64,000 nt of DNA from Betaproteobacteria bacterium (GTDB lineage Bacteria; Pseudomonadota; Gammaproteobacteria; Burkholderiales; Casimicrobiaceae). Each line of letters begins with the position of its first letter. Positions within the stretch are counted from its first letter, which is position 1. Below are positions 5,255-31,080 of the stretch, piece by piece. The stretch is from NCBI GenBank assembly GCA_016192065.1, contig JACPUX010000010.1, positions 49,728 to 113,727 on the forward strand, in the 5' to 3' direction. The translations under genes and the position numbers were made by a program. Under the pieces are notes generated by a model that made no database searches, had not been told where the DNA came from, and was given only the letters and a program-made list of their open reading frames with translations.

Positions 5255-5303
5255 ACGCGAGCAGATTCATTTTCATCTATCGGCTTAAATGAAATGAGGT
5301 GCT

Positions 5304-5747: not shown

Positions 5748-5932
5748 CGCTGCGGCCCTATGGTAGCGCCGCGACCGGCGCGCTCGTGAGTTTCTACATT
5801 TGCCTTGAGCAAGGCGAGACCGTGGATGAACTCAACCAAGACCTTCGCGAAGTACTTGCGATGCTTCTGGAAGATGGTGAACCTGATCAGGAGTCGGAAT
5901 TTGTCGGAGTTCAAACCGTTGCCGTGGCTTAG
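5669..5932 (+). CDS. possible HicB-like antitoxin-domain protein (UPF0150-like); overlaps previous ORF in another frame
   Basis: Segment ...GALVSFYICLEQGETVDELNQDLREVLAMLLEDGE resembles the HicB N-domain consensus (...PGC.sqG.TleEal.n.reAle..le); weak. Confidence 0.25.
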   Translation: MESRNWFDSAKTGREKYHRCLSIRRVTLRPYGSAATGALVSFYICLEQGETVDELNQDLREVLAMLLEDGEPDQESEFVGVQTVAVA

Positions 5933-6079
5933 CTGCTGGGTGAGCTTCCCATTCTCAAGCCCGGTACTGTTATTTCCATACTCCTTGTACTGGGCTTTGA
6001 GGAAGTGCGGTAACGCAGATAGCTGAAGTCGACTGACGAAACAAAGACCTTCTTTGCTCGAACCTTAACAACGCTTCCA

Positions 6080-7078
6080 ATGCCCGAATCCCGCAACACA
6101 CTCCAATGCCTGCTTGAACTTTTGCAGCACATTCCGCGTCATCCGCAGAGCATTACCGTGGCGGAGTTGCGTGACGCGCTGGATCGCAACGGCTTTACGC
6201 TCACCGAGCGTTCCATACAGCGACATCTGGTTACGCTGTCGCAATCGTTCTCCATCACGGCCGAGGAGCGCGAAAAACCGTATCGTTGGTACTGGACGCC
6301 AAGCGCACAGGGTTTGACCATCCCGGCACTCTCGCGCACCGCCGCGCTCACCCTGCTGATGGCGGAAAAGCACTTGCAAGGTTTACTACCGCAACCGATG
6401 TTGAAGGAACTCGGTGCTTACTTCGAGGCGGCGCGTCGCGCCCTTGCCAGCTCGCGCGAAGGGCCGCGCCGCTGGCTCGACCGCGTGCGCATCGTGCCGC
6501 CGGCGCAACCGCTGCTTGCTCCCACCATCGCGGCAGACGTGCACGAGGCGGTCTCGAAAGCGCTTTTGGATTCGCGCCAACTCCGCATCAAGTACCAGAA
6601 GCGCGGCGAAAAAAGCGCCAAGGACTGGACGATTCATCCCTTGGCCCTCGTGCAGCGTGGCCCGATGCTCTACCTCTATTGCCGCTTGTTCGACTACCCG
6701 GACGCGCGCACGCTGGCGCTGCATCGCATCAAGTCGGCCGAGTTGCTCGATGACAAAGTCGAGGCGCCGGAGGGGTTCGATCTCGATCGGCAAATCGTGG
6801 CGGGTACCTGGGGCTTTGGGGCGGGCCAGGAAATCGCGGTTGATCTCTACTTCTACAACGAGGCAGGTGATCACCTGATGGAAACGCCGCTCGCCGCCGA
6901 TCAACAAATCACGGAGTTCGGCAACGGCGAACTGCGAGTCAAGGCGCGGGTAGCGGATACGCCGCAACTGCGCTGGTGGATTTTGAGCATCGGTGATGGC
7001 GTCGAGGTCAAGAGGCCCAAGCGCCTGCGCGGCGAAATTGCTGAAGTCGCCAAGGCCACCGCGGCGCTTTACGAATAG
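6080..7078 (+). CDS. HTH-WYL-WCX transcriptional regulator (BrxR/CapW/PafBC-like)
   Basis: N-terminal wHTH (ITVAELRDALDRNGFTLTERSIQRHL), central WYL domain (WTIHPLALVQRGPMLYLYCRLFDYPDARTLALHRI), C-terminal extension; 332 aa. Confidence 0.8.
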   Translation: MPESRNTLQCLLELLQHIPRHPQSITVAELRDALDRNGFTLTERSIQRHLVTLSQSFSITAEEREKPYRWYWTPSAQGLTIPALSRTAALTLLMAEKHLQGLLPQPMLKELGAYFEAARRALASSREGPRRWLDRVRIVPPAQPLLAPTIAADVHEAVSKALLDSRQLRIKYQKRGEKSAKDWTIHPLALVQRGPMLYLYCRLFDYPDARTLALHRIKSAELLDDKVEAPEGFDLDRQIVAGTWGFGAGQEIAVDLYFYNEAGDHLMETPLAADQQITEFGNGELRVKARVADTPQLRWWILSIGDGVEVKRPKRLRGEIAEVAKATAALYE

Positions 7079-7459
7079 AGGAATGACGCGCGGGGAAATT
7101 TACTTAGAAGCCGCCCCTTACCCGATCAGCCTCTTGCCTGCCGATTGTCCTGTATGAACTTCCTGATTGCCCTCCCGCTGTCCGCATCAACACCAAACAT
7201 CGTGCCCGTGAAGAAGAGAATGTTTTGGAGCGCACGCTCGTCCAAGCCAAAGCTCTGTAATCGTTCTGTGCGCCGTTTTTCTGCGTAGCGCGTCTTGGTA
7301 TTGATACTCAGCAGCATCGTTGTGCCTCCGAAGAAGTTGAGACATCCGATTGAAGGTGGCGTGGTTCCAGCGAGCACTCGCACAAATTTCTTGCAATCGC
7401 GGGAACTAAATTTCACCCGCTGTGCTCTATGCACGCCCACTTTCGCGCCGGATATCCGA

Positions 7460-8215
7460 ATGCCCTGGACTCTTGCCTACACCCAGCATTGCGGCAACAA
7501 CCCCGACCAGCAGGACACACTGTGGTCCGGCCTCAAGATCTATCAGCACCGTGACCTTGCGCCCTTGCAACACGCGAGCGATGCCGATGAAATCTTTGCC
7601 GCCGTGGCCGATGGCGTCGCCAATAGTCCGGCACCGCAGCGCGCGAGCCGAGCTGTGCTGGAATCGCTCGCGGCCGATATCGCCGCCGGAAGAACCTTTA
7701 ACGCGAGTCTGTTGCGCCGCGCCCACGGACGCTTGTGCGATACACTCGCGCGCGGTCGAAGCTATGGCTCTGCCACCACGCTGACCGCCGCCGCCTGCCG
7801 GGGCGATCGTTGCACCGTGGTGAGCGTTGGCGACAGCCGCGCCTATCGCGTCGCCGCCGATGGCCAATGGGAACAGATCACGCGTGACCATACCATCCTC
7901 AATCGTCTGATCGATGAAGGTGTGGCCGAGGACGGCGTGGCCTACGCCGGCTTCTACGGCATGCTCGACTCCTGCCTCACCGCCGATGATGCCGATACGG
8001 ATTTTCCCATCCATTACAGTACCACCGCCTTGCTGCCTGGCGACACGCTGCTCCTGTGCACCGACGGCGTTCACGATACGCTGGGCGAGCAGCTCGCGAA
8101 CTCGTTTGACCGCCAGGCGGGCGCCCTGGCTCAGGTCCGTCGCTGGCGCGAAGCCATTCTCGCGCGCGGCGCGCCGGACAATTTTTCGTTGGTGTTGATC
8201 GAGCGCACCGCATAG
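7460..8215 (+). CDS. PP2C-family Ser/Thr protein phosphatase (ORF extends to 7295 in frame; MPWTL start preferred)
   Basis: Motifs GNNPDQQDTL (motif 1-2 Asp), SVGDSRAYRV, LLLCTDGVHDTL, GAPDNFSLVLIE typical of PPM/PP2C (Stp/PrpC) enzymes. Confidence 0.8.
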   Translation: MPWTLAYTQHCGNNPDQQDTLWSGLKIYQHRDLAPLQHASDADEIFAAVADGVANSPAPQRASRAVLESLAADIAAGRTFNASLLRRAHGRLCDTLARGRSYGSATTLTAAACRGDRCTVVSVGDSRAYRVAADGQWEQITRDHTILNRLIDEGVAEDGVAYAGFYGMLDSCLTADDADTDFPIHYSTTALLPGDTLLLCTDGVHDTLGEQLANSFDRQAGALAQVRRWREAILARGAPDNFSLVLIERTA

Positions 8216-8237
8216 GTGTCGGGCGCCCTCGACTTTG

Positions 8238-8684
8238 TCAGGTCGACGGTAAGGCGGTGGCATCGTCTTCACCATAGCCAGACTTCATGTGTTCGCGGCA
8301 GCGCGTCATGACCGGCATTCGATCGCGCGGGCGGCGACCGGTCTGGCCCGGATGGCCGCAGATCTCGCAGAGTCGTTCGGACATCGCCGTCGCCATGCGT
8401 GCCAGGCCTTCGGTTACGTCGTCACCGCCGCGGTAGCGAATTCGCAGCGAGCCGAACTTTTCCTTGACCTGCTTCAAGACGACAGGCGGCATGTGACCGT
8501 GTTGCACTGCATGCTGCACTTCGGCGCAAAAACCATCGATAAGATCGAACCACCCATCGCCGCAGGTGGGGCCCCAGGCCATCGCGCTTTCTTCAATCGA
8601 CAAACGCCGCTCCGCAAACAACTCCGGGTAACGCTCGCACAGCAGGTCGTCCATTTCTTTCTTCATCAGCAGTTCCTCGTTCAA
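8238..8684 (-). CDS. hypothetical protein (Cys/His-rich)
   Basis: 148-aa ORF downstream of dnaB on the same strand; no recognisable domain. Confidence 0.4.
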   Translation of the reverse strand: MNEELLMKKEMDDLLCERYPELFAERRLSIEESAMAWGPTCGDGWFDLIDGFCAEVQHAVQHGHMPPVVLKQVKEKFGSLRIRYRGGDDVTEGLARMATAMSERLCEICGHPGQTGRRPRDRMPVMTRCREHMKSGYGEDDATALPST

Positions 8685-8776
8685 ATCAGCTGTTCAAACC
8701 CGCGCACCAGACCGTCCAAGGTCCAGAACGCCCTTCATCATCGTTTCTCTCGCGGCAACAAGCTACTGCGGCGAGG

Positions 8777-10132
8777 CTACACATTCTCAAACCGTGTGAA
8801 CTCGCCGACGAAAGCCAATCGAATGGTGTCGATAGGCCCGTTGCGCTGCTTGCCGATGATGATTTCGGCGAGACCTTTGTCTGCGGAATCCGGGTTGTAG
8901 ACTTCATCGCGATAGATGAACAGAATCAAGTCGGCGTCCTGCTCGATGGCACCCGATTCCCGCAGATCCGACATCACCGGTCGCTTGCTGGTGCGTTGCT
9001 CCAGGCTGCGGTTCAGTTGGGAGAGCGCCAGTACCGGAACCGAGAGCTCCTTGGCCAGTGCTTTCAACGCACGCGAGATTTCCGAGATTTCGCTGGCGCG
9101 GTTCTCCCCGGCCTGCGTTGCAGCACTCATCAATTGCAGGTAATCGACCACAATGGCACCCAACCGCCCACCATGCTGGCGCGCCAGGCGCCGCGCCCGA
9201 GAGCGCAATTCGATCGGCGTGAGGGCCGGGGTCTCGTCGATGAATAGTGGTGCTTCGTGAAGCTGGCCCACCGCCGCGGACAGGCCGGCCCAATCATCGT
9301 TGGCCAGCCGCCCAGTGCGGATTTTGCGCTGATCGAGCCGCCCCACCGAGCCGATCATGCGCATGACCAGTTGCGCCGCGCTCATTTCCATGCTGAACAC
9401 CGCCACCGGCAACTTCGACACCACTGCGATATTCTCGGCAATATTGAGAGCAAACGCAGTCTTGCCCATCGAAGGCCTGCCGGCGATGACAATCAGGTCG
9501 CCTTGCTGCAAGCCGGTGGTCACGCTATCCAGCGCAGTGAAGCCGGTGGACACACCGGTCACATCGGAGGGATCGGCTCGGGAACACAACATGTCGATGC
9601 GCTCGACTACTTGCGTGAGTAATGGCTGCATGGCCTGAAAGCCCGATTCGGTGCGCGCCCCTTTCTCCGCGATGTCGAACACTTTCTGTTCCGCGAGATC
9701 CAGCAATTCGCCGGCCGTGCGGCCTGCCGGGCTATGGGCAAACTCCGCAATCTCTGTGCCGACGCCCGCAAGACTGCGCAAAATGGCGCGCTCGCGCACG
9801 ATTTCCGCATAACGCCGGATGTTCGCCGCCGTGGGCACATTTAGCGCAAGATCACCGAGGTAGGCCAGGTTCCCGACCGCTTCCAGCTTCTTGGCCGACT
9901 CCAAGCCTTCGGCCACGGTGATCACGTCCGCCGGCTGCCCCCGGAGCAAGAGGCGCCGAATCTCCGCAAAGATCAATCGATGCGCCCTGCTGTAGAAGTC
10001 AGTTTCGTCGATCACGTCGGCGATCTTGTCGAGAGCGTCGTTGTCGATCAGAAGCCCGCCCAATACGGATTGCTCGGCTTCGGGCGAATGGGGCGGAATT
10101 CTGAGATCGCTTACGGATGGGTCGCGCTTCAT
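8777..10132 (-). CDS. dnaB: replicative DNA helicase DnaB
   Basis: N-terminal DnaB domain (PHSPEAEQSVLGGLLIDND), Walker A GRPSMGKTAFALNIAEN, full RecA-like C-domain, 451 aa. Confidence 0.9.
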   Translation of the reverse strand: MKRDPSVSDLRIPPHSPEAEQSVLGGLLIDNDALDKIADVIDETDFYSRAHRLIFAEIRRLLLRGQPADVITVAEGLESAKKLEAVGNLAYLGDLALNVPTAANIRRYAEIVRERAILRSLAGVGTEIAEFAHSPAGRTAGELLDLAEQKVFDIAEKGARTESGFQAMQPLLTQVVERIDMLCSRADPSDVTGVSTGFTALDSVTTGLQQGDLIVIAGRPSMGKTAFALNIAENIAVVSKLPVAVFSMEMSAAQLVMRMIGSVGRLDQRKIRTGRLANDDWAGLSAAVGQLHEAPLFIDETPALTPIELRSRARRLARQHGGRLGAIVVDYLQLMSAATQAGENRASEISEISRALKALAKELSVPVLALSQLNRSLEQRTSKRPVMSDLRESGAIEQDADLILFIYRDEVYNPDSADKGLAEIIIGKQRNGPIDTIRLAFVGEFTRFENV

Positions 10133-10202
10133 GGTATCCCTCTACAAGCAAAGCCTGCCGATCCGCTGGCAGGACGCAAGGATCAGCTCGGAAAGCCTTT
10201 CG

Positions 10203-10835
10203 TTACTTTGGCGAGATCAATGCGTACTGCACCAGGCTGATGAATGCGGCCAACACCATATGCGCTAAGCCCATGCCAAAGGCCGCCCATCCGCTGGTGC
10301 CACCTGCCACTTCGAGTTCGCGGAGTGCCTCCTGCGGCGGCGTATGCGCCAGTACCAGCGAAACTTGCTTTTGCGCATGGTTGCGATAAAGATGGTTACC
10401 GAGGAGCCCCCAGCACACCATCAAAGCCAACCCAAACGCCATCCAGAACCACGTGCCAATCTGCGTGGTAGTTTGCAGAAGGTAGATCAAGTTGGCTGCG
10501 ATGACATACAACGTGCAATAGAGATACATCTTGCGGTACGCCAACCAGAAAATGGTGAAGCAGCCAGCCATCCAGTTCCAGGTGGCTATCGTTCGCAAGT
10601 GGTCTCCGGTGCGCCACTTGCGCGCATAGTATTCATAGTTCGGGCCGACAAACGTCCGCAACGCCACCTCGTTTGTTAGGTCACGATTAGGCGTTGCGCC
10701 TGCTGTTTGGGTCGCGGCAAGCGCTACAACGGGCGGAGGCTGGATTGCTGCCGGTTGCGCAGCCGGCTTGCCGCAGGCGCCGCAGAACGCGGCGCCGCGT
10801 AGGACTTCAATGCCGCAATGAATGCAGAGGGCCAT
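10203..10835 (-). CDS. zinc-ribbon plus DUF2628-like membrane protein
   Basis: N-terminal CIHCG...CGACG zinc ribbon followed by 2-3 TM helices (WNWMAGCFTIFWLAY...). Confidence 0.55.
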   Translation of the reverse strand: MALCIHCGIEVLRGAAFCGACGKPAAQPAAIQPPPVVALAATQTAGATPNRDLTNEVALRTFVGPNYEYYARKWRTGDHLRTIATWNWMAGCFTIFWLAYRKMYLYCTLYVIAANLIYLLQTTTQIGTWFWMAFGLALMVCWGLLGNHLYRNHAQKQVSLVLAHTPPQEALRELEVAGGTSGWAAFGMGLAHMVLAAFISLVQYALISPK

Positions 10836-10965
10836 GTCGATATCCGAAAGTTTGATCGGGTATGCATGGTCTCATTTTGGTGCGACATTTCGTGTCGCAG
10901 CATTCAAGGCCCGACACTTCCTGGTACTTTGAGCGCAGGGAGCGCGGTTAGCAGCTACGTGCTTA

Positions 10966-11631
10966 CTATTTCAGACTTTCTAGCCACGAACTCGCGGAGA
11001 GCAGATGCGTTTCAGGTACCCACCGGCCCACTGCTCTTCTAACCGATCCAGATATCCCCAGAATCGCGGACACTTTTGGAAGGACTTCTTGGTTTTCATC
11101 TGAGAGCTGTACGGCTGTTTGGAAGAGCTTTGAGCCACACTTGTCGCCCTCCACGATAACCAAGGTAGGTTCCGCGTTAGCGCGCCGCAAATGCGCGTTG
11201 TTGGCAAGATGGTTCAGCGCCGACGGCGGCCATAAAGGCGAATCAGGCATTGAATGGACTTCGCGAACCTTTAAGAGCCCGATCACAAAACAGGTGCCAG
11301 GGGACACCGCCGGACCCTGAAATCCAGCGTAGAACACAAGATAGTCGCCGGCCGTCAATCTAAGCAGTTGAAGGCGTTTGGGATTGTTAGGCTCGCCGTA
11401 GGTGAAGGTGCCAAATTCGGGATCGAAGTGCGCTGGTTGGTCGCGGGAAACAAACTTGAGAAGCGAACCTCCAGAGCGAGCAGGTATATGACTGTACAGA
11501 ACAGCGCGCCCCGGAAGCAACGGTTTGCTTTCGGGGATAGGGACGTACTCGAAACAGCCGTCGGCATTGATCGGGGACAGGGTTCCTCCACATCCCCGAT
11601 CAATGCCAACTCGAAGGAACAATATCTTCAT
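10966..11631 (-). CDS. unknown-function protein P240, paralog of the next gene (start MKILFLRVGIDRGCGG, ATGA-coupled to upstream stop)
   Basis: ATG at 11631 overlaps TGA of the upstream gene (ATGA); shares an N-terminal beta-strand/Gly-loop motif [KR]V.xDRG... and a downstream GD..hhh.G motif with P261. Confidence 0.55.
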   Translation of the reverse strand: MKILFLRVGIDRGCGGTLSPINADGCFEYVPIPESKPLLPGRAVLYSHIPARSGGSLLKFVSRDQPAHFDPEFGTFTYGEPNNPKRLQLLRLTAGDYLVFYAGFQGPAVSPGTCFVIGLLKVREVHSMPDSPLWPPSALNHLANNAHLRRANAEPTLVIVEGDKCGSKLFQTAVQLSDENQEVLPKVSAILGISGSVRRAVGRWVPETHLLSASSWLESLK

Positions 11632-12413
11632 GGCTGGGAAATGTCTTCCTCGCCCGCCGCGTCCGACTCCTTCTCGCGATGTTGGCACTCACCGCATCGC
11701 GGGGACTCGTTGGGATTGCCAGGCCCATCGGCCGGTTGGCCAAGTATCCCGGAATTCTCAATATTCAGATTGCTAAGTGATGTGTTGAACCACTCCCGGA
11801 ACTTTTCCCTGAAACCCGCATTCGCGTTGGAACGGTGCCCCTGGCCTCTCGGGACTATCGCTTCTAGTTCGTTGGGCAACCGCGCATTGTAGCGGTCGCC
11901 ACGACCAAAATACCAGTACTGGCGGCCAATCAGGACTTTTTGCCCGTTAGTAACGTCTCTCTCAAAATCGTCCTCGCCATGACCAGACCACGATGGTAGA
12001 GGTGCCTGCTCATCTGTTGCACTCTTCCAAATACAATCGCCGGGGTTTCGCTCGCCCTGTGGCACCTTGGCTGTGAAGGACTGGTCGTTACTGCAGCGAG
12101 TGATATAGCATTCCCAGCATATTGCTTCCCCCACAACCATCAGATAGACAAGTCTGTTGGAATCATCTCCGCATCCAAACCCCGCTACAACATCGCCGGG
12201 TTGTGCAACACGCCGGATGATAGGCTTGCAAATGGCAAGCGTGCAAATTTTTCCAAAGGGGTTCGGCGCACTACCGCGGTCTGCCGCCACTTTGTACGTG
12301 AAAAGCCGATGATTCTTGAACTCCGGCAAACCGCCCATTTCCATTTTCTCCCGTTTTTTCCGCCGCATGCGGCATTCACTATCATCGAAAAGGACTAATC
12401 CTGTAGCGACCAA
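11628..12413 (-). CDS. unknown-function protein P261 (N-terminal motif FTYKVAADRGSAPNPFGKICTLAICKP; C-terminal CGECQH)
   Basis: 261-aa ORF overlapping both neighbours (operon); paralogous N-terminal region with P240. Confidence 0.55.
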   Translation of the reverse strand: MVATGLVLFDDSECRMRRKKREKMEMGGLPEFKNHRLFTYKVAADRGSAPNPFGKICTLAICKPIIRRVAQPGDVVAGFGCGDDSNRLVYLMVVGEAICWECYITRCSNDQSFTAKVPQGERNPGDCIWKSATDEQAPLPSWSGHGEDDFERDVTNGQKVLIGRQYWYFGRGDRYNARLPNELEAIVPRGQGHRSNANAGFREKFREWFNTSLSNLNIENSGILGQPADGPGNPNESPRCGECQHREKESDAAGEEDISQP

Positions 12414-13234
12414 TCCACCAAACTTGCCACTACGCGAGAGGCAGATTTTTCCTCGTTGTTCTGTGCAAAGAGATATCGCCGCTCATTATGCATCCCTCCC
12501 CGATCGCGCTCAACGGCCGGAACGCGCTCGAACCCCGTCCACGCCTGCGTGTACTCGGCCACCAAAAGAAACTCCGGGAAAACCCCGCATCGTTGCGCAA
12601 TTCTTTCCAGCAGACCGTCGCGGCCAAAGCGCTCGTAGTTACCGCCGAAGCCATGATCGACAAGCACTACCGCAAACGGTGGCCGCTGTTCATGGCCTTG
12701 GCAGAACAGTGCGTCGTAGCTGGCGATGCCGTCGGCGCCTAGAAACAGAATGGCGAGCCGCTTCGCGCCATGTTCTTCGGCAAGGTCCGGGTTTCTTTCG
12801 AGCACTTCCAGAAAACCAAAAGGTGCGTCCGCCACGCTGGCAAAATTCAGTGCGGAGGCGATGTTTAGTTCGTCGGGCGCGAGGTGGCTTCTCCAGCCAT
12901 TCGGAACGAGATCGCTTTCGCGCAATGGCACGCGGGCTAACCGGTGGTAACCGAGAAACCCGTGTTCCGGGTGCTCCAAAGTCTTTTCCAGTTCCGCCTG
13001 CGTGCGGCCATAGTCCACATAGACGAAGCAATGCGCAGCGTGCGCCGAGCCGAAGAGTTTGACCGGGTGGCCGTCGGTTCCGGAACCTGGGTAATAGACG
13101 ATGCGCGAGCTAAGGAATGCCTGGCGCGGAAAGGCATTTCCATTTGTGAATTGGGCGAGCCAGTCAGGCATCGCTTCGCGCTTCTCGCGTAGATATTCGC
13201 TTGGCGTCATGGTGTTCTCGCGTATGCGGGTCAT
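12395..13234 (-). CDS. unknown-function protein P279 (possible Rossmann-like G-loop VYYPGSGTDG)
   Basis: 279-aa ORF, 19-nt overlap with P261; weak similarity to a SAM-MTase motif I only. Confidence 0.5.
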   Translation of the reverse strand: MTRIRENTMTPSEYLREKREAMPDWLAQFTNGNAFPRQAFLSSRIVYYPGSGTDGHPVKLFGSAHAAHCFVYVDYGRTQAELEKTLEHPEHGFLGYHRLARVPLRESDLVPNGWRSHLAPDELNIASALNFASVADAPFGFLEVLERNPDLAEEHGAKRLAILFLGADGIASYDALFCQGHEQRPPFAVVLVDHGFGGNYERFGRDGLLERIAQRCGVFPEFLLVAEYTQAWTGFERVPAVERDRGGMHNERRYLFAQNNEEKSASRVVASLVDWSLQD

Positions 13235-13244
13235 ATCATTTTGG

Positions 13245-13310
13245 GTTCTTCTGGGTAATCAGCCCCATCCCCGCCTTCCCCCATCGAGGGGGAAGGAGTT
13301 GAGCCAGGGT
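13245..13310. repeat. GC-rich perfect hairpin CCTTCCCCC-ATCGA-GGGGGAAGG in intra-operon gap (REP-like)
   Basis: 9-bp perfect inverted repeat directly visible, no T-tract on either side. Confidence 0.5.
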
Positions 13311-13378
13311 GGAGCGACCGTCAGGCCCACACCAACGTCCATTAGGCGTCATTTTGAAGAAGAGGAACGTAACACAAT

Positions 13379-15556
13379 TCATCGAGGCCTCGCCGCCAAT
13401 GCGGTTTCCGGAACACCGCTCAAGAATCCGATGGTGGCTCGCCGCACATCGGGGCGTGCCGCTTGCTCGGCGCGCAGGCGGCCGATGAGATCTTCAAGGT
13501 CGCTCACGGGGCGCAGACGTGCTTGGCGGATGACCAGGGCAAAGTCGCCAGGTGTGAGCGGGCCTAGGCGCAGCACCCGGTCCCTGACCGCGACAATCCG
13601 GTCGAGGCCGAGCGTCTCGGCGGTATCTTGAAAGAGCAGCCAGGCCTGCTCTGGTCGGAGATAGTCGAAGCGGATCTTGCAATCGAAGCGCCGTAGCGAG
13701 GCAAGGTCGAATTGCTCGATCAGATTGGTGGAGGCGAGAAAGACGCCTTCGAAGTTTTCCATTTGCGTGAGCATTTCGTTGACCAGCGTCACTTCCCAGG
13801 ACCGCTGGGCATTGCCGCGTTGCTGCAGGAAGCTGTCGGCTTCGTCGAGCAGTAAGATCGCCTTCTCCTCGCGCGCTTCGGCAAACATGGCCGCGGCATT
13901 GTGCTCGTTTTCGCCCACCCATTTCGACAAGAGGTCCGAAGCGCGCCGCACCAGCAGGGGGCGATCCATGGTCTGCGCAAGATGCTGGGCAAAGGCGGTC
14001 TTGCCGGTTCCGGGCGGGCCATAGAAGCACAGGCGTCCGCTTTGCGCTCGTTGCAGCGTTTCGGCCATGCCGGCGATGTCGCAGTCGCAATTGAGTGCCT
14101 CGGGTCGATAGGTGGTAACCGACCTTGCCTGCACGCGCGGCTCGCGCGGCAAACCGAGCGCTTGCAGCGAATTGCCGATGGTGGTGCTGAGCGCGGCTTC
14201 GAGTTCCGCGCCCGGCCACTCCGCTAGGGCCGCATGCGCAATTTTCGCGGCCTTGGCCACGAGTGCTGGCACCAATTGCTCGTGCTCGGCGAAGCGACTC
14301 TTCCAGGTATCGGAAATGGCCAGACCGGCGAGTTCGTTGTCCAGCACCTGACGGCGCACGCATCGGGGTGGCGCATCCATGCGCAGCACAAAATCAAAAC
14401 GACGGCGCAAGGCGCGGTCCATCGACCAGACGTTGTTGCAGACCCAGATCGCGGGAACCGGATTCGTTTCGAGCTGGTTGATGAAAAAACCCTTGAGGTC
14501 GCTGCGTTTGCCCATCTCTTCGGGCGAGGCCTCTGCCGGTCGAAACACTTCATCGACCTCATCGAAGAAAAGCAAATGCGCTCCCGCTCGCTCCAGGAGC
14601 GCCTGGGCCAGGCGAAAGGCTCGCAAGCGCTGCGGGCTTTCAAGCGGAGCCCCCCAGCGAGTGAGCACCGCTACTTCAAACAGAGCGCTGCCTGCCTCGC
14701 GTGCAATCATCCGGGCAAATTCGGTCTTGCCGGTGCCGGGTTCGCCGTAGAGCAAAACGTTAACGCCGCGCCGGCGATCACGCAGTGCGGCACCGAAATA
14801 GGCCTTCAATACGGCAATCTCACGCGCAAGATGCGGGTAGTTTTGCGCGGCTAAAACGGGCGCCGGCGCGGCGGCAATGCGGCTTCGAAAAACCCGGAGC
14901 ACGTCGTCGCCGGGTTTGTTCGCGAGGTCGACCAGACTATCGATGACGCTGATGCAATCCAGAAACAGCTCTTTCCGGCGGCGCTCTTCGACAACACCAC
15001 TTCGGAAGAGCATTCCTTCCGGTGCCAACGCCTCCTGTATGCGTTGCTCGTCGATGGCCAGAGCGCAGGACAGAACCCGACTCGGAGGTATCATTTGCCA
15101 CGCTCGGCAGGAGAGAATACTCCATAGCGGGTCGCTATCTGCGGCCAGACGAAATTCAAGTATGGCTTGCTCGACCGGATCAAGTGCAAGGCGGGTGGCA
15201 AGCTGCTTGACCGGTTCGCCAAACTTGCAGTGCGTTGGCGTTTCCTTCTCCATTGCCTCTGCCTGCTGCCAATCCCTACGCATGCGGGCAATGATGGCAT
15301 CACGGTTGAAAGGGCCTTGCTCGGGGCTGCGGTCGATTTCATCGCCTAGGTCGAGCGCCCGCGCAACGGAGTCTTCGCGAAACTCTTTTTCCGTGATCAG
15401 CTGCTTGTAGTAACCGAGCCCAAGGAGCAAGCGATAAGCCCATAGCTTCGTCCGCGCGCAGGGCGTGACGCCGAGCGACATGCCCGGTTCCTCCGCCATG
15501 GGCAGTGCTTCACGCGTTGTGGGTTGTTTTGCGGCGGGATCGAGATCGGCGGGCAT
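13379..15556 (-). CDS. tandem AAA+ ATPase (two CbbX/SpoVK-like AAA modules)
   Basis: Two Walker A motifs (LLYGEPGTGKTEFARMIA and LCFYGPPGTGKTAFAQHLA), each followed by a Walker B-like segment (hhhFDEVDEVF and ILLLDEADSF); 725 aa. Confidence 0.85.
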   Translation of the reverse strand: MPADLDPAAKQPTTREALPMAEEPGMSLGVTPCARTKLWAYRLLLGLGYYKQLITEKEFREDSVARALDLGDEIDRSPEQGPFNRDAIIARMRRDWQQAEAMEKETPTHCKFGEPVKQLATRLALDPVEQAILEFRLAADSDPLWSILSCRAWQMIPPSRVLSCALAIDEQRIQEALAPEGMLFRSGVVEERRRKELFLDCISVIDSLVDLANKPGDDVLRVFRSRIAAAPAPVLAAQNYPHLAREIAVLKAYFGAALRDRRRGVNVLLYGEPGTGKTEFARMIAREAGSALFEVAVLTRWGAPLESPQRLRAFRLAQALLERAGAHLLFFDEVDEVFRPAEASPEEMGKRSDLKGFFINQLETNPVPAIWVCNNVWSMDRALRRRFDFVLRMDAPPRCVRRQVLDNELAGLAISDTWKSRFAEHEQLVPALVAKAAKIAHAALAEWPGAELEAALSTTIGNSLQALGLPREPRVQARSVTTYRPEALNCDCDIAGMAETLQRAQSGRLCFYGPPGTGKTAFAQHLAQTMDRPLLVRRASDLLSKWVGENEHNAAAMFAEAREEKAILLLDEADSFLQQRGNAQRSWEVTLVNEMLTQMENFEGVFLASTNLIEQFDLASLRRFDCKIRFDYLRPEQAWLLFQDTAETLGLDRIVAVRDRVLRLGPLTPGDFALVIRQARLRPVSDLEDLIGRLRAEQAARPDVRRATIGFLSGVPETALAARPR

Positions 15557-15743
15557 GGCGACACCAGAATGGAAAACGTTCGGGTGCCGATTGTAGGGGG
15601 TGCATGCGACACATTATGTCGCTTTAACTATTATTGCGGCTTTGCGAGCAGATCGACTTGCGGGTCTTGAAACGCATCTATACGATTCCGCGAGTAGAAC
15701 TCTGGCCTGGCAATGGCGCATTTTTTTCCGGATGGAGGCAATT

Positions 15744-16235
15744 ATGGATATTCACCTGAATTGGGTAGGCCCAATGTCGTTGGAGGCCGCTCACGAACTT
15801 TTGAACCAGGATGACGTCGGTTTGTATCAGTGGTATGGCGACCATCCGGTATATGGTGCCGAGACACTGCTCTACATCGGGATGGCCTTTGACCAAAGGT
15901 TAGGAGAAAGACTGGAGCAGGAGAACTGGGGAGAATGGATTCCTTCCACTCCGAGTCTTTATGTTGGGCGCGTTTGCACCGAGAACGGCAGCGCGCCAAA
16001 CAATGGAAGAACGATAGTTATGACCGCGGAAAAGGTTCTTTTATTCTCCCACAGCCCTGCGTTCAACTCGAGCAACCTAAACAATATCGACGGTGTGGCG
16101 CAAGATGTCCGCGTCCTCAATTGGGGGATGCGGAAGAGCTTATTGCCGGAAGTTAGCGTCTATCGGTGGGTGGCTGGCGGGCAGCATGGTCATCGGCTGC
16201 CGAATGGTTTATCTCCAGTTCAATGGTCAAATTGA
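15744..16235 (+). CDS. hypothetical protein, possible GIY-YIG-like nuclease fold (low GC)
   Basis: GGAGG RBS 5 nt upstream of ATG 15744; motif GLYQWYGDHPVYGAETLLYIGMAFDQRLGERLEQ resembles GIY...YIG...R...E but the spacing (15 aa) is atypical. Confidence 0.35.
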   Translation: MDIHLNWVGPMSLEAAHELLNQDDVGLYQWYGDHPVYGAETLLYIGMAFDQRLGERLEQENWGEWIPSTPSLYVGRVCTENGSAPNNGRTIVMTAEKVLLFSHSPAFNSSNLNNIDGVAQDVRVLNWGMRKSLLPEVSVYRWVAGGQHGHRLPNGLSPVQWSN

Positions 16236-16236
16236 G

Positions 16237-17091
16237 CTATATCTCGGGCGCATGCGTCAGGTGGTGCGACTTCGCGCCGAGTGGATTGAATGGCGGCATG
16301 AGCCTGTTTAGCGCCGCCACGGCCTCGTGGTTAGCGGCATCGATAATGTCTACCACGCTCGCATCCACGCCCATTCGTTGAACGATCGTCTCTAGCGGCA
16401 ACGCCAGCACCATCGGCGTCCAACTACGCAACATGTACAGGGCGGTGGCAGCAGCACTCGCGGCACATGCACCTTCAAAACGGAAGGGTAGCGCCACCAC
16501 TGCGGCCATGGGGATGCTGTTGGCTTGCGCGAGCCGAGTCAGTCGCAGTGCCAGGTGTGTCCCGGTACGCCGCCCCACACCGGCGCAGAGAAGCACATAC
16601 TCGCTTTCACAGACCAGCGCTTCCAGTTCGTTCTTGTTTTCCGCAACCACTCGCGAGACGCGCTCCGCATAGCGCATTGATTCCGGACACGCGTCTAGGT
16701 CGAGCAGCAGCTTCTTGTCCGCGCGGCGACGCGCCAGCGAATCACGGTCAGTATTGATGCAAACCGTTCGCACAGGTGGCGCACCGGGTTCCGCGAGGTA
16801 GCGTTCCATGATGTTGCCGCCCGCACCACCGAGACCAAACAGCGTAACGCTTGCGCCGGCCTTGGGCCCGCGCGATCCGGCATGGGCCAGCCAGGGAAAT
16901 GCGCCGAGGGCACTGGCGCAAACAGCGGCCCGGAGAAAACTTCGGCGTGGTAAGGCAGAATCGAGGATGGGAGCTTCCTTCAGGCTTCGCGCGCTCCGAT
17001 TGGCCAATATACTGGCTTCCCGGCGCGCTGGGGCGCGATGTGAGTGGTCCATGGCGAGGTCTCCTTCAACTGACAGACTTGGCGCCAGCAT
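16237..17091 (-). CDS. Tat-signal-bearing, degenerate FtsZ/tubulin-fold protein (N-terminal GTPase-domain homolog only)
   Basis: Tat motif LPRRSFLRAAV + h-region + AHA; then FGLGGAGGNIMERYL / CINTDRDSL / LLCAGVGRRTGTH / AVVALPFRFEG, aligning with FtsZ GVGGGGGNAV / AVNTDAQAL / IAAGMGGGTGTG / AVVTKPFNFEG; T3 loop deleted and T4 degenerate. Confidence 0.65.
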   Translation of the reverse strand: MLAPSLSVEGDLAMDHSHRAPARREASILANRSARSLKEAPILDSALPRRSFLRAAVCASALGAFPWLAHAGSRGPKAGASVTLFGLGGAGGNIMERYLAEPGAPPVRTVCINTDRDSLARRRADKKLLLDLDACPESMRYAERVSRVVAENKNELEALVCESEYVLLCAGVGRRTGTHLALRLTRLAQANSIPMAAVVALPFRFEGACAASAAATALYMLRSWTPMVLALPLETIVQRMGVDASVVDIIDAANHEAVAALNRLMPPFNPLGAKSHHLTHAPEI

Positions 17092-17661
17092 TCATGACAA
17101 TGCGCGGCGCAGGAAATTTTCGAACGAGGGCTTGTCTCGGGTCAAGCGCCAGACCAGGGGCACCAGCACGACAAGCCATAACATCCCGCTTTGGCGCTTG
17201 CGCTCGCGTTCGTGCGCGCTCTCGCCCGTCGGGTTAAGCATATCTTTTAGAGCGCCGATGAGGAATACCGCAAGTGTGAGTTTTGTCACCAGCGCGATGG
17301 CGAAGCGCCACGGCGATGGGTTGTCGACCGCGGTGCGAAACGAGAGCCCGAGCAGCGCAGCCGTTGCCCCTCCGAGGCAAACCAGTAGCAGCAAGCGAGA
17401 ATTGGAGAAGACAAGCGCACCCAGCAAAAACGCGGCAACCGCAAGCACCCAGCCATAATCCGCCGCATCACGAAACACGACAACGCGTTCACGTATGCCG
17501 AGCACGATTCCCGTCGAGACCATGATCAGCCAGCCCAGGATGAACCATTCGGTGGGCGATATTGGGCTTACCTCCACTGCGCCGCGCGCTCCCGCAGAGA
17601 CGAAAATCAGCGCCATGGTGCAAACGAGATTGGGCCAATTCAGAAACGGTTTCACATTCAC
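17092..17661 (-). CDS. small integral membrane protein (4-5 TM), immediately abuts the FtsZ-like gene
   Basis: Hydrophobic segments throughout; stop codon directly abuts the start of the FtsZ-like ORF. Confidence 0.5.
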   Translation of the reverse strand: MNVKPFLNWPNLVCTMALIFVSAGARGAVEVSPISPTEWFILGWLIMVSTGIVLGIRERVVVFRDAADYGWVLAVAAFLLGALVFSNSRLLLLVCLGGATAALLGLSFRTAVDNPSPWRFAIALVTKLTLAVFLIGALKDMLNPTGESAHERERKRQSGMLWLVVLVPLVWRLTRDKPSFENFLRRALS

Positions 17662-17911
17662 ATCCTCCTATCTGCACTTTCACCGGCGCTGCGACTGCCA
17701 TCGCGTCGCCGCGTAAGAGTCGCTACCTCGACTATGAATGATGCATGCGACAAGATGCGTCGCATGAAGGAGGATGTGTTCTTGCTGCTGGCCACAACTT
17801 GGTGACGCATTGCCCGACGGACTGTATTTGTCTGCCTGACAAGCCGCAATTGGTGCCGCAATTGGCGCGGCTTACTGCGTGGGGCAACGCACTGGCAGGC
17901 GGGTTGAGCGG

Positions 17912-20074
17912 CTACTTGCCCTCAAGATCATCCATGAACTCGGACGCCGGGGCCGTTCCTGTAACCAACAGCCTGTCCCGCGCGCGCGTGCAGGCGACAT
18001 AGAGCAATTGCCGCTCGGTGTCGTAAACCTCCTGCAGGTCGCCGTCGTCGCCGACCGTTTCGATCCGCTCCTGCAGCGGGATGATTTCGTCGTCGCAGGC
18101 CATCACCGCCACCGCGCGGAACTCCAGCCCTTTCGCCAGGTGCATGGTGCAGACCGACACCTGCCCGGGTTCCGTCGCCACGTGGTCATCCAGAATCCGG
18201 CAAGGCAAGCCGGCGATGCGAAGCGCTTCCTCGGCCCGGCCGATTTGCGCGCCGGAACGCACGAAAACGGCCATCTCATGCGGCTGGATGCCGGCGCTGG
18301 CGCATTCGGCGAGCCAGTCCGCTACGACCGCGCTTTCTTCCGCCGCATCGCCCAGAATCCGCAGACGCGGCGGCGGGCCGTTGAACACCGACACGGCATC
18401 GCTGCGGTCTTCGCTATTGCCGTCCGCGTCGGTCACGGTGGGGCCGAGCAGGCGATCCGCCTGGCTGCGAATCTGGTGCGAAGTCCGGTAATTGACGCGC
18501 AGAGTGCGGGAGCGGCCGCGCACATCCACGCCGAGCGATTTCCAGGAGAAAGGCTGCTGGAAGATGCGCTGCCCAAGGTCGCCGGCGAAGAACAGCGCAT
18601 TCGGGCGCACCGCGCCTTCCCCTCCGGCCAGCGCAACCAGAAAGCGCAAGTGCGCGACCCCGACATCCTGCGCCTCGTCGACCACGGCGAAATCGAAAAC
18701 GGGATTGCGCCTCGCTTTCAAGGCGCTTGCCAGGGCCGTGAATAGCCCCGAGGCCGTGACCAGGCCCTTGTCGCGCAAGCCGGCGCGGACGCGCTCGAAG
18801 ATCGCCCACAACACCGCCCGCTGCGCTTCCGGCAGCCGGGTCTTGCGGCCGAGGCGCACCACGTCGCGATAGGCCTCCCAGCGGTCGAGCTGCCAGGCAT
18901 CGACCACGTGTTCCCATTCGGCGAGCAGAAAGCGCCGGCCGAACTTGTGTCCCGCCACGGCCCCGGCGGCGGCGTCCATGAGCTGGCGAATGTCGTCGCG
19001 GGTCGCCAGCTGTGCCGAGCCGACATGGGTCTTGTACAAGCGCAGTCCGATGGCGTCGAGAGAAAACACGTCGATCCGCTCGGCGAGCCGCGGCTCGGAA
19101 GTCAGCAGGCGGTTGAGCTTCGATTGCAGGGCACTGGCCAGTGTGTCGGTAAACGTGGCCAGAAGGACGCGCGCATCGGGATTCGTCCGCGCCAGATGCG
19201 CGGCGCGGTGCAAGGCCACGATGGTCTTGCCGGTGCCGGCCGAACCGGCCACGCGCGCCGGGCCGGCGTAATCCCGCTCCACCCACTGGCGCTGCTCGGG
19301 GTGGAGAAAGACCGTCCATTTCTCCCACGGATAATCGAGGGCGCGCTGCAATTCCTCGACGTTGCCCATCACGCGGAAGCGGCGCTGCGCGTCGGGATGG
19401 TCGAACGGGCTGACCGCCGACGGTGCAGGCACACGCGGCTTGCCGCCCGTCGCCAGTTCAAGCAGCGCCTCCGCCGCCTCTGCCGGCAAATGATCGGCAA
19501 GGACGAGCAGGCTGTCCTCCGTGGCCTGCTTCACGTCGGGCAACCACTCCGGCGGCACGCCGTAGCCCAGCAGCTCGTCGTCGGGAACGTTCAGGAATAG
19601 CGGCTTCGCCGCCACCACTTCTGTGGCACTCGCTGGCAAGGGCAATTCGCCCTGCACAACCACCGGCACCACGATTTCCCTGACCGTCTCGCGGATCTCG
19701 ACCAGTTGCGCCGCGCCAGTCTTGGGATGGGTTTCGAGCTTGCGGCGCTCGGCCCACTCGTAGGCCTTGTCGTGGTGATCGACGTAGCAAAGCAGCAGGC
19801 TCGACTCGCTGCGGTGAACGATCAGGCGAATGTCGCTGCCCACCCGCACCGACCAGAAATTCTTGTCCTTGGCGCGGTCGAGCTTGTGAAAACTCAAGCC
19901 GGGGCTGGCGGGATTCAGTTGCAGGTCGAAAGCGGTCGTCTTGACGAGCTTCTGCTCGTCGCCGGTCAGCCGGGCCAGGCTTTCAGTGAAGGTGTCAGCG
20001 ATGAGGTACTGCATGTACGAGACCGCTTCGCCATCCGAATCAAGGTGTATGCAGACAGCCGCGGGCGATCGCAA
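17912..20074 (-). CDS. UvrD/Rep-family SF1 helicase with N-terminal RelE/ParE-like domain
   Basis: Walker A GSAGTGKTIVALHRAAHLA, C-terminal LLYVACTRARDRLLV (motif VI); N-terminal about 110 aa with FWSVRVGSDIRLIVHRSESSLLLCYVDHHDKAYEW resembling RelE/ParE toxin-fold C-terminal motifs. Confidence 0.8.
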   Translation of the reverse strand: MRSPAAVCIHLDSDGEAVSYMQYLIADTFTESLARLTGDEQKLVKTTAFDLQLNPASPGLSFHKLDRAKDKNFWSVRVGSDIRLIVHRSESSLLLCYVDHHDKAYEWAERRKLETHPKTGAAQLVEIRETVREIVVPVVVQGELPLPASATEVVAAKPLFLNVPDDELLGYGVPPEWLPDVKQATEDSLLVLADHLPAEAAEALLELATGGKPRVPAPSAVSPFDHPDAQRRFRVMGNVEELQRALDYPWEKWTVFLHPEQRQWVERDYAGPARVAGSAGTGKTIVALHRAAHLARTNPDARVLLATFTDTLASALQSKLNRLLTSEPRLAERIDVFSLDAIGLRLYKTHVGSAQLATRDDIRQLMDAAAGAVAGHKFGRRFLLAEWEHVVDAWQLDRWEAYRDVVRLGRKTRLPEAQRAVLWAIFERVRAGLRDKGLVTASGLFTALASALKARRNPVFDFAVVDEAQDVGVAHLRFLVALAGGEGAVRPNALFFAGDLGQRIFQQPFSWKSLGVDVRGRSRTLRVNYRTSHQIRSQADRLLGPTVTDADGNSEDRSDAVSVFNGPPPRLRILGDAAEESAVVADWLAECASAGIQPHEMAVFVRSGAQIGRAEEALRIAGLPCRILDDHVATEPGQVSVCTMHLAKGLEFRAVAVMACDDEIIPLQERIETVGDDGDLQEVYDTERQLLYVACTRARDRLLVTGTAPASEFMDDLEGK

Positions 20075-20414
20075 ACTCTTTCAGCTTCTTGGCCAGCTTC
20101 CGGCACTCCTTATCCGCACGCTGGCCAAAATTGATGTAGGCATGTGCCGGTGAAGCAGGAATAATCGGATCGGGTTGGCTCGCCAAACCCGCATGAGTGA
20201 CCTCATCGCACTTCACTCCCCATACGCCTGCCGACGGATTTCCCAGATCATCGGTGTAATGACAGTATGATGCCTCAGCGGAAATCTGGTCACCGTCATA
20301 CACCGACAGCCGCCCATGATCCTTGGGAAATGGGTAAAACGCCTGACTTGACAGTATGCCTTCCGGAAGAAAGTTAGGATGCACCTGCCGCAGCAACAAG
20401 GTCTGACCATTCAT
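20040..20414 (-). CDS. hypothetical protein P124
   Basis: 124-aa ORF, 35-nt overlap with the helicase gene and 4-nt overlap with the upstream gene (operon). Confidence 0.45.
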   Translation of the reverse strand: MNGQTLLLRQVHPNFLPEGILSSQAFYPFPKDHGRLSVYDGDQISAEASYCHYTDDLGNPSAGVWGVKCDEVTHAGLASQPDPIIPASPAHAYINFGQRADKECRKLAKKLKEFAIARGCLHTP

Positions 20415-21511
20415 GCAGCGGTTGTCCTGATGCTGTCACTCAAGAATCCAAATAGCGACTGCCATTCCGCAGCGTTTTCCAGTTTGAATTCACGCTCGAT
20501 GTCATTGCCGTTCGGCCCGAACGCATGAAAGCTGGCTTGAAGGCTGCTCAAAAGAAGATCGAGAGACGGAGAACCATCAGCCGCCCATTCCAGCAGCAAG
20601 TTGCCGTCCTGCGTTGGAACGATGCTCGGCAGTATCAATCTTTCCGGATAGTCCGCAATGAGCTTGTCGGCAACGATTGCCAACTTGTCAGCATCAAGGG
20701 CCGCGCCTTGCCCCTCGTACCAACCAGCCCGCACCTGGGCAAGCTCATCCATGCGCGTGGCAATCGCGTAATTTCTTACAACCTCCATTGACTCCACGGA
20801 AATCAGTTTCTGCAAGCGATCCCAAGAATCATGTGCCGCCACACCTTTCAAAGCCACCTGATGTCGTGGCTTCCCGCCGTATTCTCGCGCCTTGTTGTGG
20901 AAAGAATCCGGCATAGGCACGTTGACTTGATTGCCATCGGCGAGGCGAAGCCTAAACGTCGATTTTTCCCAATCCACTTCCGCAATGGAACCGAGTAAAT
21001 CGACTTCCTTTTCATATACCTGATCGGCGGCAAGCACCAATTTCTTTCGCTTGTCCGGAGTCAATACCGCGCTTCCAGCTCGTTGGCGCGGCAATTCCAG
21101 GGCCTCGCCCTCACGCAGTGAACGGCCAAACTGGTTGAAATGCGCCAGGAGTTCCTTGGGAAAATTGTCGGGCAAAGCGTTTTCCGGTGCGGCAATACAC
21201 TCGGAAACCAGGTCTCTGGCCTGATCGAAATAGTCTCGCTCCCCACCCACTAGCGCCAGCGCGCCGGAAAGCACCAGAACCAAATTCGGCATAGCACTGC
21301 CTGGATCGATGCGCTCAATGTCCAAACGAAAGTTCGACGCGAAGCCCTTCGGAACACGCTCCCGATCGGGATGATCCGTCAAGTACAGGTGCTTGGCGAG
21401 GTCGAGGATCAAGCTTTCGTACGCAGCAAGGTCGCGTGCGACATCAACCGGCAAGGTTTTCTCGTCGAACCTTGCGCCGGTGAACTTGGGTTGCGAAAAA
21501 TCGGTCTTCAT
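20411..21511 (-). CDS. hypothetical protein P366
   Basis: 366-aa ORF, first gene of the 3-gene operon, 73 bp downstream of the mod stop; moderately lower GC. Confidence 0.5.
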   Translation of the reverse strand: MKTDFSQPKFTGARFDEKTLPVDVARDLAAYESLILDLAKHLYLTDHPDRERVPKGFASNFRLDIERIDPGSAMPNLVLVLSGALALVGGERDYFDQARDLVSECIAAPENALPDNFPKELLAHFNQFGRSLREGEALELPRQRAGSAVLTPDKRKKLVLAADQVYEKEVDLLGSIAEVDWEKSTFRLRLADGNQVNVPMPDSFHNKAREYGGKPRHQVALKGVAAHDSWDRLQKLISVESMEVVRNYAIATRMDELAQVRAGWYEGQGAALDADKLAIVADKLIADYPERLILPSIVPTQDGNLLLEWAADGSPSLDLLLSSLQASFHAFGPNGNDIEREFKLENAAEWQSLFGFLSDSIRTTAA

Positions 21512-31078: not shown

Positions 31079-31080
31079 GT

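Follow-up and report, generated by a model that had tools for sequence, protein, structure and literature searches.

The genes at 10966-15556 and their junctions

A 64,000-nt stretch of betaproteobacterial DNA (here called the window) carries on its minus strand, at positions 10966 to 15556, a cluster of four genes for a tandem AAA+ ATPase and three small proteins, P279, P261, and P240. A reading of the sequence alone (the sequence-only reading) had taken this cluster for a compact operon and a candidate novel antiphage system. The four open reading frames (ORFs) are codirectional, as had been stated, and strong homolog support makes each a real gene. As called, they span 13379-15556 (725 aa), 12395-13234 (P279, 279 aa), 11628-12413 (P261, 261 aa), and 10966-11688 (P240, 240 aa). 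The starts of the three smaller genes moved when homologs were consulted, and the revised coordinates are those of Table 1, where P261 and P240 appear under the names of the families to which we assign them below, Nmad2 and Nmad3.

We compared the window with a neighborhood sample of 80 genome and 80 metagenome loci around Nmad2 relatives, scanning their ORFs with profiles built in this analysis; loci are referred to by L numbers. L008 and L088 are Burkholderiales relatives with the same cluster (DNA identity to the window, 95.6% over 8.5 kb and 84-94%, respectively), and L001 is a close relative in which the cluster has decayed (83-94% over shared blocks). L016 comes from Eikenella, L099 groups with it, and L007 is a degraded copy of the same group, which takes in a metagenome contig; L022 comes from Lonepinella. 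L008 lies on a 472-kb contig (CAVOQQ010000002.1) that is labeled "uncultured Acidimicrobiales" yet is nearly identical to the window, whose own proteins are recorded as Betaproteobacteria and whose relatives are recorded as Burkholderiales/Casimicrobiaceae. The taxonomic label of this metagenome-assembled genome contig looks wrong.

The four genes had been described as overlapping by 19 nt, by 61 nt, and through an ATGA, and only the last of these overlaps stood. The Nmad2 stop codon and the Nmad3 start codon share the ATGA at 11628-11631, which is seen in the window sequence; L088 is annotated alike, and in L007, where the two genes stand in the opposite order, they likewise overlap by 4 nt. 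Counted from the ATG at 11631, Nmad3 has 221 aa. The 61-nt overlap requires a GTG start at 11688 that no homolog uses, and the 19-nt overlap between P279 and P261 requires a TTG start at 12413 that homologs do not support. They back an Nmad2 start at ATG 12344, which is preceded by a GGGAG Shine-Dalgarno sequence, or at ATG 12338, where an identical database protein begins with MGG, so that roughly 50 nt separate P279 from Nmad2. Three genomes share ATG 13210 as the start of P279 (L001 has AAG in place of the ATG at 13234), and the ATPase and P279 genes therefore do not overlap but are separated by a 168-nt spacer. The spacers along the ATPase, P279, Nmad2, and Nmad3 genes of L088 are 59, 47 (from the P279 stop to the Nmad2 start), and −4 nt.

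The window spacer contains an insert of about 113 nt (about 13216-13330) with a 9-bp GC-rich hairpin, the palindrome core of which lies at 13267-13298. The insert occupies the same site in L001 and is not at this site in L088, where a 70-nt piece of it (86% identity) lies upstream of the ATPase gene. It is single-copy in the window and looks like a small mobile repeat. The fold of the hairpin was not significant (z-score, −1.65), and a promoter and terminator scan of 10100-16400 gave counts no higher than those in shuffled sequence.

P261 and P240 are Nmad2 and Nmad3 proteins

The sequence-only reading could assign none of the three small proteins to a known family, and for two of them this was wrong. 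P261 matched the Pfam family Nmad2 (PF18753) at 120.1 bits against a gathering threshold of 26.1 (E = 1.2e-34; model positions 3-186 of 200), and P240 matched Nmad3 (PF18754) at 92.4 bits against a threshold of 27 (E = 4.5e-26; model positions 1-200 of 247). The suggestion that two of the small proteins are paralogs was not supported either for this pair: a BLASTP comparison of Nmad2 with Nmad3 gave an E value of 36, and hhalign gave a probability of 6.8% over one GD-strand segment. A PDB sequence search with Nmad2 and Nmad3 profiles returned nothing below an E value of 0.5.

The AlphaFold model of Nmad2 (pLDDT, 90) shows a PUA-like β-barrel that superposes on the YTH, EVE, ASCH, and McrB N-terminal-domain folds, and the protein has invariant Cys-Lys, His, and Asp residues. 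Judged by its model, Nmad2 looks like a reader of modified bases, and we predict that it binds or processes modified bases or nucleotides. Nmad3 has invariant residues R7, G9, D11, H68, D70, P71, D96, and H147, and it probably forms a complex with Nmad2, its translationally coupled partner.

The two families travel together in part of the Nmad2 tree. Nmad3 was adjacent in nearly every locus of the clade nearest the window (identity of at least about 40%), in either order, and the distant clade was almost always without it. Many Nmad2-Nmad3 pairs had as neighbors either just the trio of a WYL regulator, a small ORF, and a DUF2779 protein or nothing recognizable.

We also noted the company kept by Nmad2 proteins of the distant clade. 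In L071 (9103-10681), an HNH_2 nuclease gene lies directly upstream, inside a Type I restriction-modification (R-M) locus, and in L056 (9995-11602), an Mrr nuclease gene lies directly downstream. L172 and L173 carry overlapping TIR-Nmad2 pairs on plasmids, beside MazG-like pyrophosphohydrolase/UDG genes or, in L173, beside a nucleotide kinase gene and a radical SAM gene. A phage origin of Nmad2 was considered and rejected, since neither IMG/VR nor a set of 50,697 phage genomes contained a relative.

The ATPase is a classical-clade AAA protein with two intact modules

The ATPase has two PF00004 stretches (E = 1e-47), and its best sequence matches among solved structures were VAT, Cdc48, and p97 (5e-27). 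Its first module (D1) carries the motifs GEPGTGKT, FFDEVD, and RRRFD, and its second (D2) carries GPPGTGKT, LLDEAD, RRFD, and SKWVGE. In a full-length alignment with the L088, L016, L099, and L022 orthologs, the Walker A and Walker B motifs and the arginine fingers were conserved in both modules. The D2 pore loop reads SKWVGE in the window and L088, GKYVGE in L016 and L099, and DPYVGG in L022. The protein is thus a classical-clade AAA ATPase of type II (two modules) with the motifs of both modules intact, and these motifs are typical of a protein-threading remodeler. Its first approximately 240 aa, a family-specific region, matched no Pfam family, yet they align along their length with the orthologs.

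Orthology with Cdc48, VAT, and p97 was rejected, as TIGR01243 gave 86 bits against a cutoff of 802; the likeness is one of architecture and clade only. The AAA_5 match was weak (8e-11), PF00004 being the best. Among PADLOC models, the ATPase matched IetA (1.4e-34, with D2, the best match) and TRIP13 (4e-15).

The family to which the ATPase belongs comprises 135 cluster representatives at an E value of ≤1e-40, and it has other partners elsewhere. It occurs with WYL, SIR2, PP2C, and PDDEXK_4 genes in L177; with DUF2779, SNF2 helicase, and WYL genes inside an integrative element in L175; with a YAcAr protein in L176 (Cardiobacterium); and with a 193-aa protein of no assigned family in L174.

A phosphatase and a WYL regulator outside the cluster complete the conserved set

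Full-length orthologs of the ATPase (30-33% identity to the window protein) lie beside Nmad2-Nmad3 in three lineages, Burkholderiales, Eikenella, and Lonepinella. Every locus with this combination also has a PP2C-family phosphatase, and every one except the degraded L007 has a WYL-WCX regulator; Pfam searches confirmed the partner genes. In the window, these two genes lie on the opposite strand at 6080-8215, outside the reported cluster. The window PP2C is 40% identical to that of L016 (E = 3e-43) and 35% identical to that of L022 (E = 5e-34), with conserved aspartates D19, D51-G52, D125, D202-G203, D206, and D240. The window WYL protein is 37-41% identical over its full length to the L016, L022, and L005 regulators (E = 1e-62 to 4e-85). 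These identities are high for organisms of different orders; those of all components across the lineages lie between 30 and 41%. A WYL gene was found near the Nmad pair in L005/L009, L010, L016, L018, L019, L022, L023, L026, L088, L099, and L104.

The order of the genes differs from lineage to lineage. It is WYL, AAA+, SIR2, Nmad3, Nmad2, PP2C, and c28 in L016, L099, and L007, the Eikenella version (L016 and L099) being a compact seven-gene operon in which SIR2 follows AAA+ in the place of P279. The L016 operon, of Eikenella glucosivorans, spans 4964-11867. It is WYL, Nmad2, Nmad3, two small ORFs, PP2C, and AAA+ in L022. In the window, L008, and L088, it is AAA+, P279, Nmad2, Nmad3, DUF2628, dnaB, and one ORF, followed by PP2C and WYL on the other strand; the order of the first four genes is kept in these three genomes, which differ by 5-16% in DNA. 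The five components AAA+, PP2C, WYL-WCX, Nmad2, and Nmad3 lie within about 10 kb of one another in the window (each in a single copy), L008, L088, L016, L099, and L022. Because their co-occurrence survives rearranged gene order in three lineages, we propose that the five are functionally linked, for which persistence through such reshuffling is good evidence.

This result moves the boundary of the system. The genes of the four-gene unit do recur, but its composition was wrong: the coordinates first given do not take in the regulator and the phosphatase, and P279, which is no conserved partner, drops out of the core. The picture that emerges is of an AAA+/PP2C/WYL chassis with swappable modules, of which Nmad2-Nmad3 is one.

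Between the two halves of the system in the window lie dnaB and a gene for a DUF2628 zinc-ribbon membrane protein (8777-10835, minus strand), codirectional with Nmad3. The dnaB gene of L001 (12387-13750) was called as two ORFs of 318 and 128 aa, possibly by a frameshift or an assembly error.

P279 is a lineage-specific accessory

P279 found 614 homologs (E values of up to 1e-184), and its family, for which there is no Pfam model, numbers at least 1444 clusters at 50% identity. In its structure model, P279 has a Rossmann fold like that of class I methyltransferases, though divergent; the loop reads G-S-G-T-D-G (GxGxxG), and strands 2 and 4 are followed by the acidic residues D66 and D160, respectively. 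Searches of Pfam and NCBIfam gave no match to a methyltransferase family. The protein is mostly solitary (L001, L003, and L089-L091), and L001 keeps it though the AAA+ and Nmad genes are lost. Among all loci examined, it lies inside the system only in the window, L008, and L088, and it is therefore a lineage-specific accessory rather than a core part. P279 domains also occur in fusions (P0363, P0368, P0398, and P0404) with a caspase (Peptidase_C14), LEM-3-like GIY-YIG nucleases, and a GNAT acetyltransferase. The caspase and GIY-YIG fusions point to a role in sensing or regulation and away from one as a housekeeping methyltransferase.

Two small ORFs bear on the GIY-YIG connection. A 211-aa ORF at 15600-16235 (plus strand), divergent from the ATPase gene, has a GIY-YIG-like motif (LYQWYG...LLYIG) and no Pfam match. 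A similar motif is present in a 161-aa ORF of L001 (10899-11384), which replaces Nmad2-Nmad3 and directly follows the P279 homolog. The similarity among these two ORFs and the GIY-YIG part of the P279 fusions is marginal (E = 0.01-0.04), and we treat the link as a lead only.

The cluster lies in a mosaic defense island

The sequence-only reading had placed the cluster in a defense island, and the window bears this out, with a WYL-WCX regulator, Type III R-M genes, a zeta toxin, and further defense-type genes (Table 1). The accessory island lies between glmS and two tRNA genes, the pair of which may mark its far edge; glmU and glmS flank the region. The island is a mosaic and a hotspot of cassette exchange. 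In L001, just the last 14 codons of the ATPase gene are left and dnaB is kept, other cassettes occupy several positions, and no remnants of Nmad2 or Nmad3 were found.

Table 1. Coordinates of the genes and other features of the window
Feature	Coordinates	Strand	Basis and remarks
AAA+ ATPase, two modules, 725 aa	13379-15556	-	PF00004 twice
AAA+-to-P279 spacer, 168 nt	13211-13378	-	Sequence read
P279, 271 aa from the conserved ATG	12395-13210	-	Homologs; class I methyltransferase-like Rossmann model
Nmad2 family protein, PUA-like fold	11628-12344	-	PF18753
Nmad3 family protein	10966-11631	-	PF18754
PP2C-family phosphatase, 251 aa	7460-8215	+	PF13672 (1e-9); ATG at 7460
HTH-WYL-WCX regulator (BrxR/CapW-like)	6080-7078	+	PF13280 and PF25583
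GajB-like UvrD helicase	17912-20074		
PDC-M32A	20411-21511	-	PADLOC candidate system protein (1e-127); flanked by the Type III methyltransferase and GajB-like helicase genes
Type III methyltransferase	21584-24388		PADLOC MTase_III (E = 0)
PDC-S13, Bro-N domain	24589-25431	-	PADLOC (1e-117); between the Type III methyltransferase gene and 25441-28518
ResIII/REase_III-like gene	25441-28518		REase_III models weak (3.5e-5)
Zeta toxin	28798-29439		
Two adjacent tRNA genes	31007-31155	+	ARAGORN; the first is tRNA-Cys with anticodon ACA instead of the usual GCA

Other features of the island were noted in passing. A divergent tubulin/FtsZ-like gene at 16237-17661 (minus strand; PF00091, 1.5e-11; TIGR00065, 73 bits against a cutoff of 295) adjoins a 189-aa ORF without a family match, and the pair is kept beside the system in L001 and L088. 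A cassette of CTD6, MC2, and AAA_23 genes (L001, 685-4116) sits in the slot held by PDC-M32A in the window. A PhdYeFM/zeta-toxin pair present in L001 and L088 is missing at window positions 17766-17865.

A candidate conflict system, probably antiphage

We favor the reading that a modular, probably antiphage, conflict system is present here in the form taken by one lineage, split in this genome, and we put the probability of this candidate at about one half. The earlier proposal of an ATP-dependent antiphage system that is none of the named ones holds as a candidate, in that no PADLOC v2 model covers it and it is not ietAS. In favor of this reading are the linkage of the five components, the modular partners of the ATPase family, the defense genes around the locus and its decay in L001, the TIR, HNH_2, and Mrr partners of Nmad2 elsewhere, the Nmad2 protein of the phage-tested system DS-4, and the absence of Nmad2 from phage genomes. 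The analysis establishes what the genes are, how they co-occur, and where they lie; a defensive function, the roles of the parts, and the ligands are proposals. Regulators of the BrxR/CapW WYL-WCX type repress defense operons such as those of BREX and CBASS until infection or DNA damage occurs.

If the system is defensive, it could work as follows. The WYL regulator would hold down expression until the cell is infected or its DNA is damaged. A heteromer of Nmad2 and Nmad3 would form the sensing module, the PUA-like barrel of Nmad2 binding a phage-derived ligand, either a flipped-out modified base or a modified nucleotide, and Nmad3, with its conserved His and Asp residues, processing the ligand or serving as the output. 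The AAA+ ring, using ATP and the D2 pore loop, would unfold or disassemble a protein partner and so license or reset the sensor, a gating role that we suggest because TRIP13 acts analogously on HORMA-CD-NTase complexes in CBASS. PP2C would undo an activating phosphorylation, which, since no kinase is encoded, would come from a phage or host kinase. The gene after AAA+ would be a swappable Rossmann-type module: a SIR2 NADase in Eikenella and L177, a YAcAr protein in Cardiobacterium, and P279 in the window.

A bolder version of this proposal, which we consider improbable in its entirety, is that the loci represent an unnamed immune class in which a Cdc48-like unfoldase and PP2C gate an Nmad2-Nmad3 sensor based on a PUA-like reader of modified bases or nucleotides, the outputs (SIR2, PD-(D/E)XK, YAcAr, or P279) are interchangeable, and immunity would be achieved by ATP-driven remodeling and dephosphorylation, not by DNA translocation.

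Several observations weigh against an antiphage system of this composition. Most Nmad2-Nmad3 pairs are without AAA+ and PP2C, and the ATPase occurs also without Nmad genes, so the link between them is facultative. In the window itself, dnaB stands between the two halves. L001 has kept WYL and PP2C but not the ATPase and Nmad genes, so these two may serve something else, and no kinase that could partner PP2C was seen. None of P279, Nmad2, and Nmad3 is covered by a PADLOC v2 model. Among the 130 immediate neighbors of 20 Nmad2-Nmad3 loci, most were housekeeping genes, and about 20 matched PADLOC families (Mokosh, Dpd, MADS, PARIS, and others), a count that comes without a background control.

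Three other explanations of the locus were weighed. The first is self-directed modification of nucleotides or DNA: Nmad2, Nmad3, and P279 would install or remove a base mark in DNA or nucleotides of the cell itself, with AAA+ as a loader or chaperone, and any effect on defense would be indirect, like that of an R-M epigenetic mark. The Pfam description of both families as "nucleotide modification associated" fits this idea, as do the invariant Cys-Lys, His, and Asp of Nmad2 and the class I methyltransferase fold predicted for P279. So does the company of Nmad2 elsewhere, with thymidylate synthase, a nucleotide kinase, and a 5-hmdU-kinase-like protein in the system DS-4 and, in L173, with the nucleotide kinase and radical SAM genes that adjoin the TIR-Nmad2 pair. 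Against it, the window, Eikenella, and Lonepinella loci have no thymidylate-synthase, kinase, glycosyltransferase, or TGT-type gene, and the systems of other lineages do without P279. Base-hypermodification pathways are typically phage encoded, and Nmad2 is absent from the 50,697 phage genomes searched. The partners SIR2, TIR, PD-(D/E)XK, HNH, and Mrr are effector types rather than biosynthetic enzymes. We therefore regard self-modification as an unlikely explanation.

The second explanation is that three independent units, a stand-alone AAA+, a solitary P279, and a self-sufficient Nmad2-Nmad3 pair, happen to be adjacent in a recombination hotspot. The solitary P279 genes, the many Nmad2-Nmad3 pairs without AAA+, and the other partners of the AAA+ family are all consistent with it, as are the 168-nt spacer with its inserted hairpin element and the mosaic nature of the region between close relatives. 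Against chance adjacency stand the recurrence of orthologous AAA+, PP2C, and WYL genes with Nmad2-Nmad3 in three distant lineages with the order shuffled, the short spacers of L088, and the four-gene order maintained in the window, L008, and L088, and we give this explanation little credence. The third, a housekeeping or stress role in replication or proteostasis, in which host proteins near dnaB would be the targets of a Cdc48-like unfoldase and PP2C that take no part in conflict, is very improbable. For it speak the position of the cluster immediately upstream of DUF2628-dnaB and codirectional with it, the flanking glmU and glmS genes, and the mostly housekeeping neighbors of Nmad loci elsewhere, but the locus is absent from L001, which retains dnaB, the dnaB linkage is confined to this lineage, the distribution across Proteobacteria is patchy, and the partners include SIR2, PD-(D/E)XK, and WYL proteins.

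The favored reading, a modular conflict system, has consequences for several families. If the system is defensive, it would supply a function for Nmad2 and Nmad3, Pfam families with computational annotation so far, and for the large orphan family of P279-like proteins, and it would reveal the part that an unfoldase of the Cdc48 type and a PP2C phosphatase play in bacterial immunity. The PUA-like fold of Nmad2 leads to a testable idea, namely that modified bases or nucleotides of phages are recognized. The candidate system is conserved and can be tested, and its proposed mechanism is unusual.

Comparison with known systems

The novelty claimed by the sequence-only reading has to be reduced, as Nmad2 and Nmad3 are already Pfam families and Nmad2 already occurs in a validated system, DS-4; the combination itself was not found described. 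Our literature search found no paper describing the AAA+/PP2C/WYL/Nmad2-Nmad3 combination, though it did not cover the original description of the Nmad families. Full-text searches for Nmad2, Nmad3, PF18753, and PF18754 returned unrelated papers, apart from DefensePredictor and an anti-Tmn paper on Nmad5, and a combined search for PP2C, SIR2, AAA+, and WYL brought up no relevant paper. Iyer et al. reportedly introduced the Nmad families in 2013 and may already note some of these associations. Both Pfam families are computationally defined domains; here, both proteins pass the family thresholds and their genes are nearly always adjacent in the close clade. What this analysis adds is the PUA-like fold of Nmad2 and the association with AAA+, PP2C, and WYL.

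DS-4 ("NTTI"), one of the DefensePredictor systems, consists of thymidylate synthase, a nucleotide kinase, a 5-hmdU-kinase-like protein, a TIR protein, and Nmad2, and it is listed among the validated systems, having been tested against phages in E. coli (PMC13092281). It resembles the present locus in being a chromosomal defense locus, and its Nmad2-family protein, encoded by the last of the five genes, overlaps its upstream partner. DS-4 has no Nmad3, AAA+, PP2C, or WYL, however, and the Nmad2 clade that it represents is the distant, TIR-linked one. Membership in DS-4 was rejected because only Nmad2 is common to both. DS-15 ("AAA1") of DefensePredictor was also considered as a relative and set aside; by sequence it looks like a ParA-like ATPase, and it appears unrelated.

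Membership in ietAS was rejected as well. The IetA match covers about 145 residues of the generic AAA core, the NCBIfam IteA model gave 109.9 bits against a cutoff of 510, and no peptidase that could stand for the subtilisin-like protease IetS was found among the window neighbors. Type IV restriction offers PUA-like readers in the N-terminal domain of McrB (McrBC), in EVE-HNH proteins (VcaM4I), and in PD-T4-3 (GIY-YIG plus reader). An McrBC-like system was rejected here: the AAA_5 match is weak, PF00004 is the best, and there is no McrC-like gene. Unlike McrB, which is of the GTPase type, the AAA+ protein of the locus is a classical-clade tandem ATPase of the protein-unfoldase kind; the window version has no recognizable nuclease, and its putative reader is a separate protein paired with Nmad3.

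A parallel in logic exists with those CBASS loci in which TRIP13/Pch2 and HORMA proteins are under the control of CapW, a WYL regulator. Both have a classical-clade AAA+ remodeler under a WYL-type regulator. The present locus differs in having no HORMA protein, CD-NTase, or cyclic-nucleotide effector and in having an ATPase with two AAA modules and another N-domain, so the likeness is one of logic only. Set beside these systems, we rate the locus as a candidate defense system that is ATPase centered, modular, and built in part from families already predicted in nucleotide-centered conflict systems.

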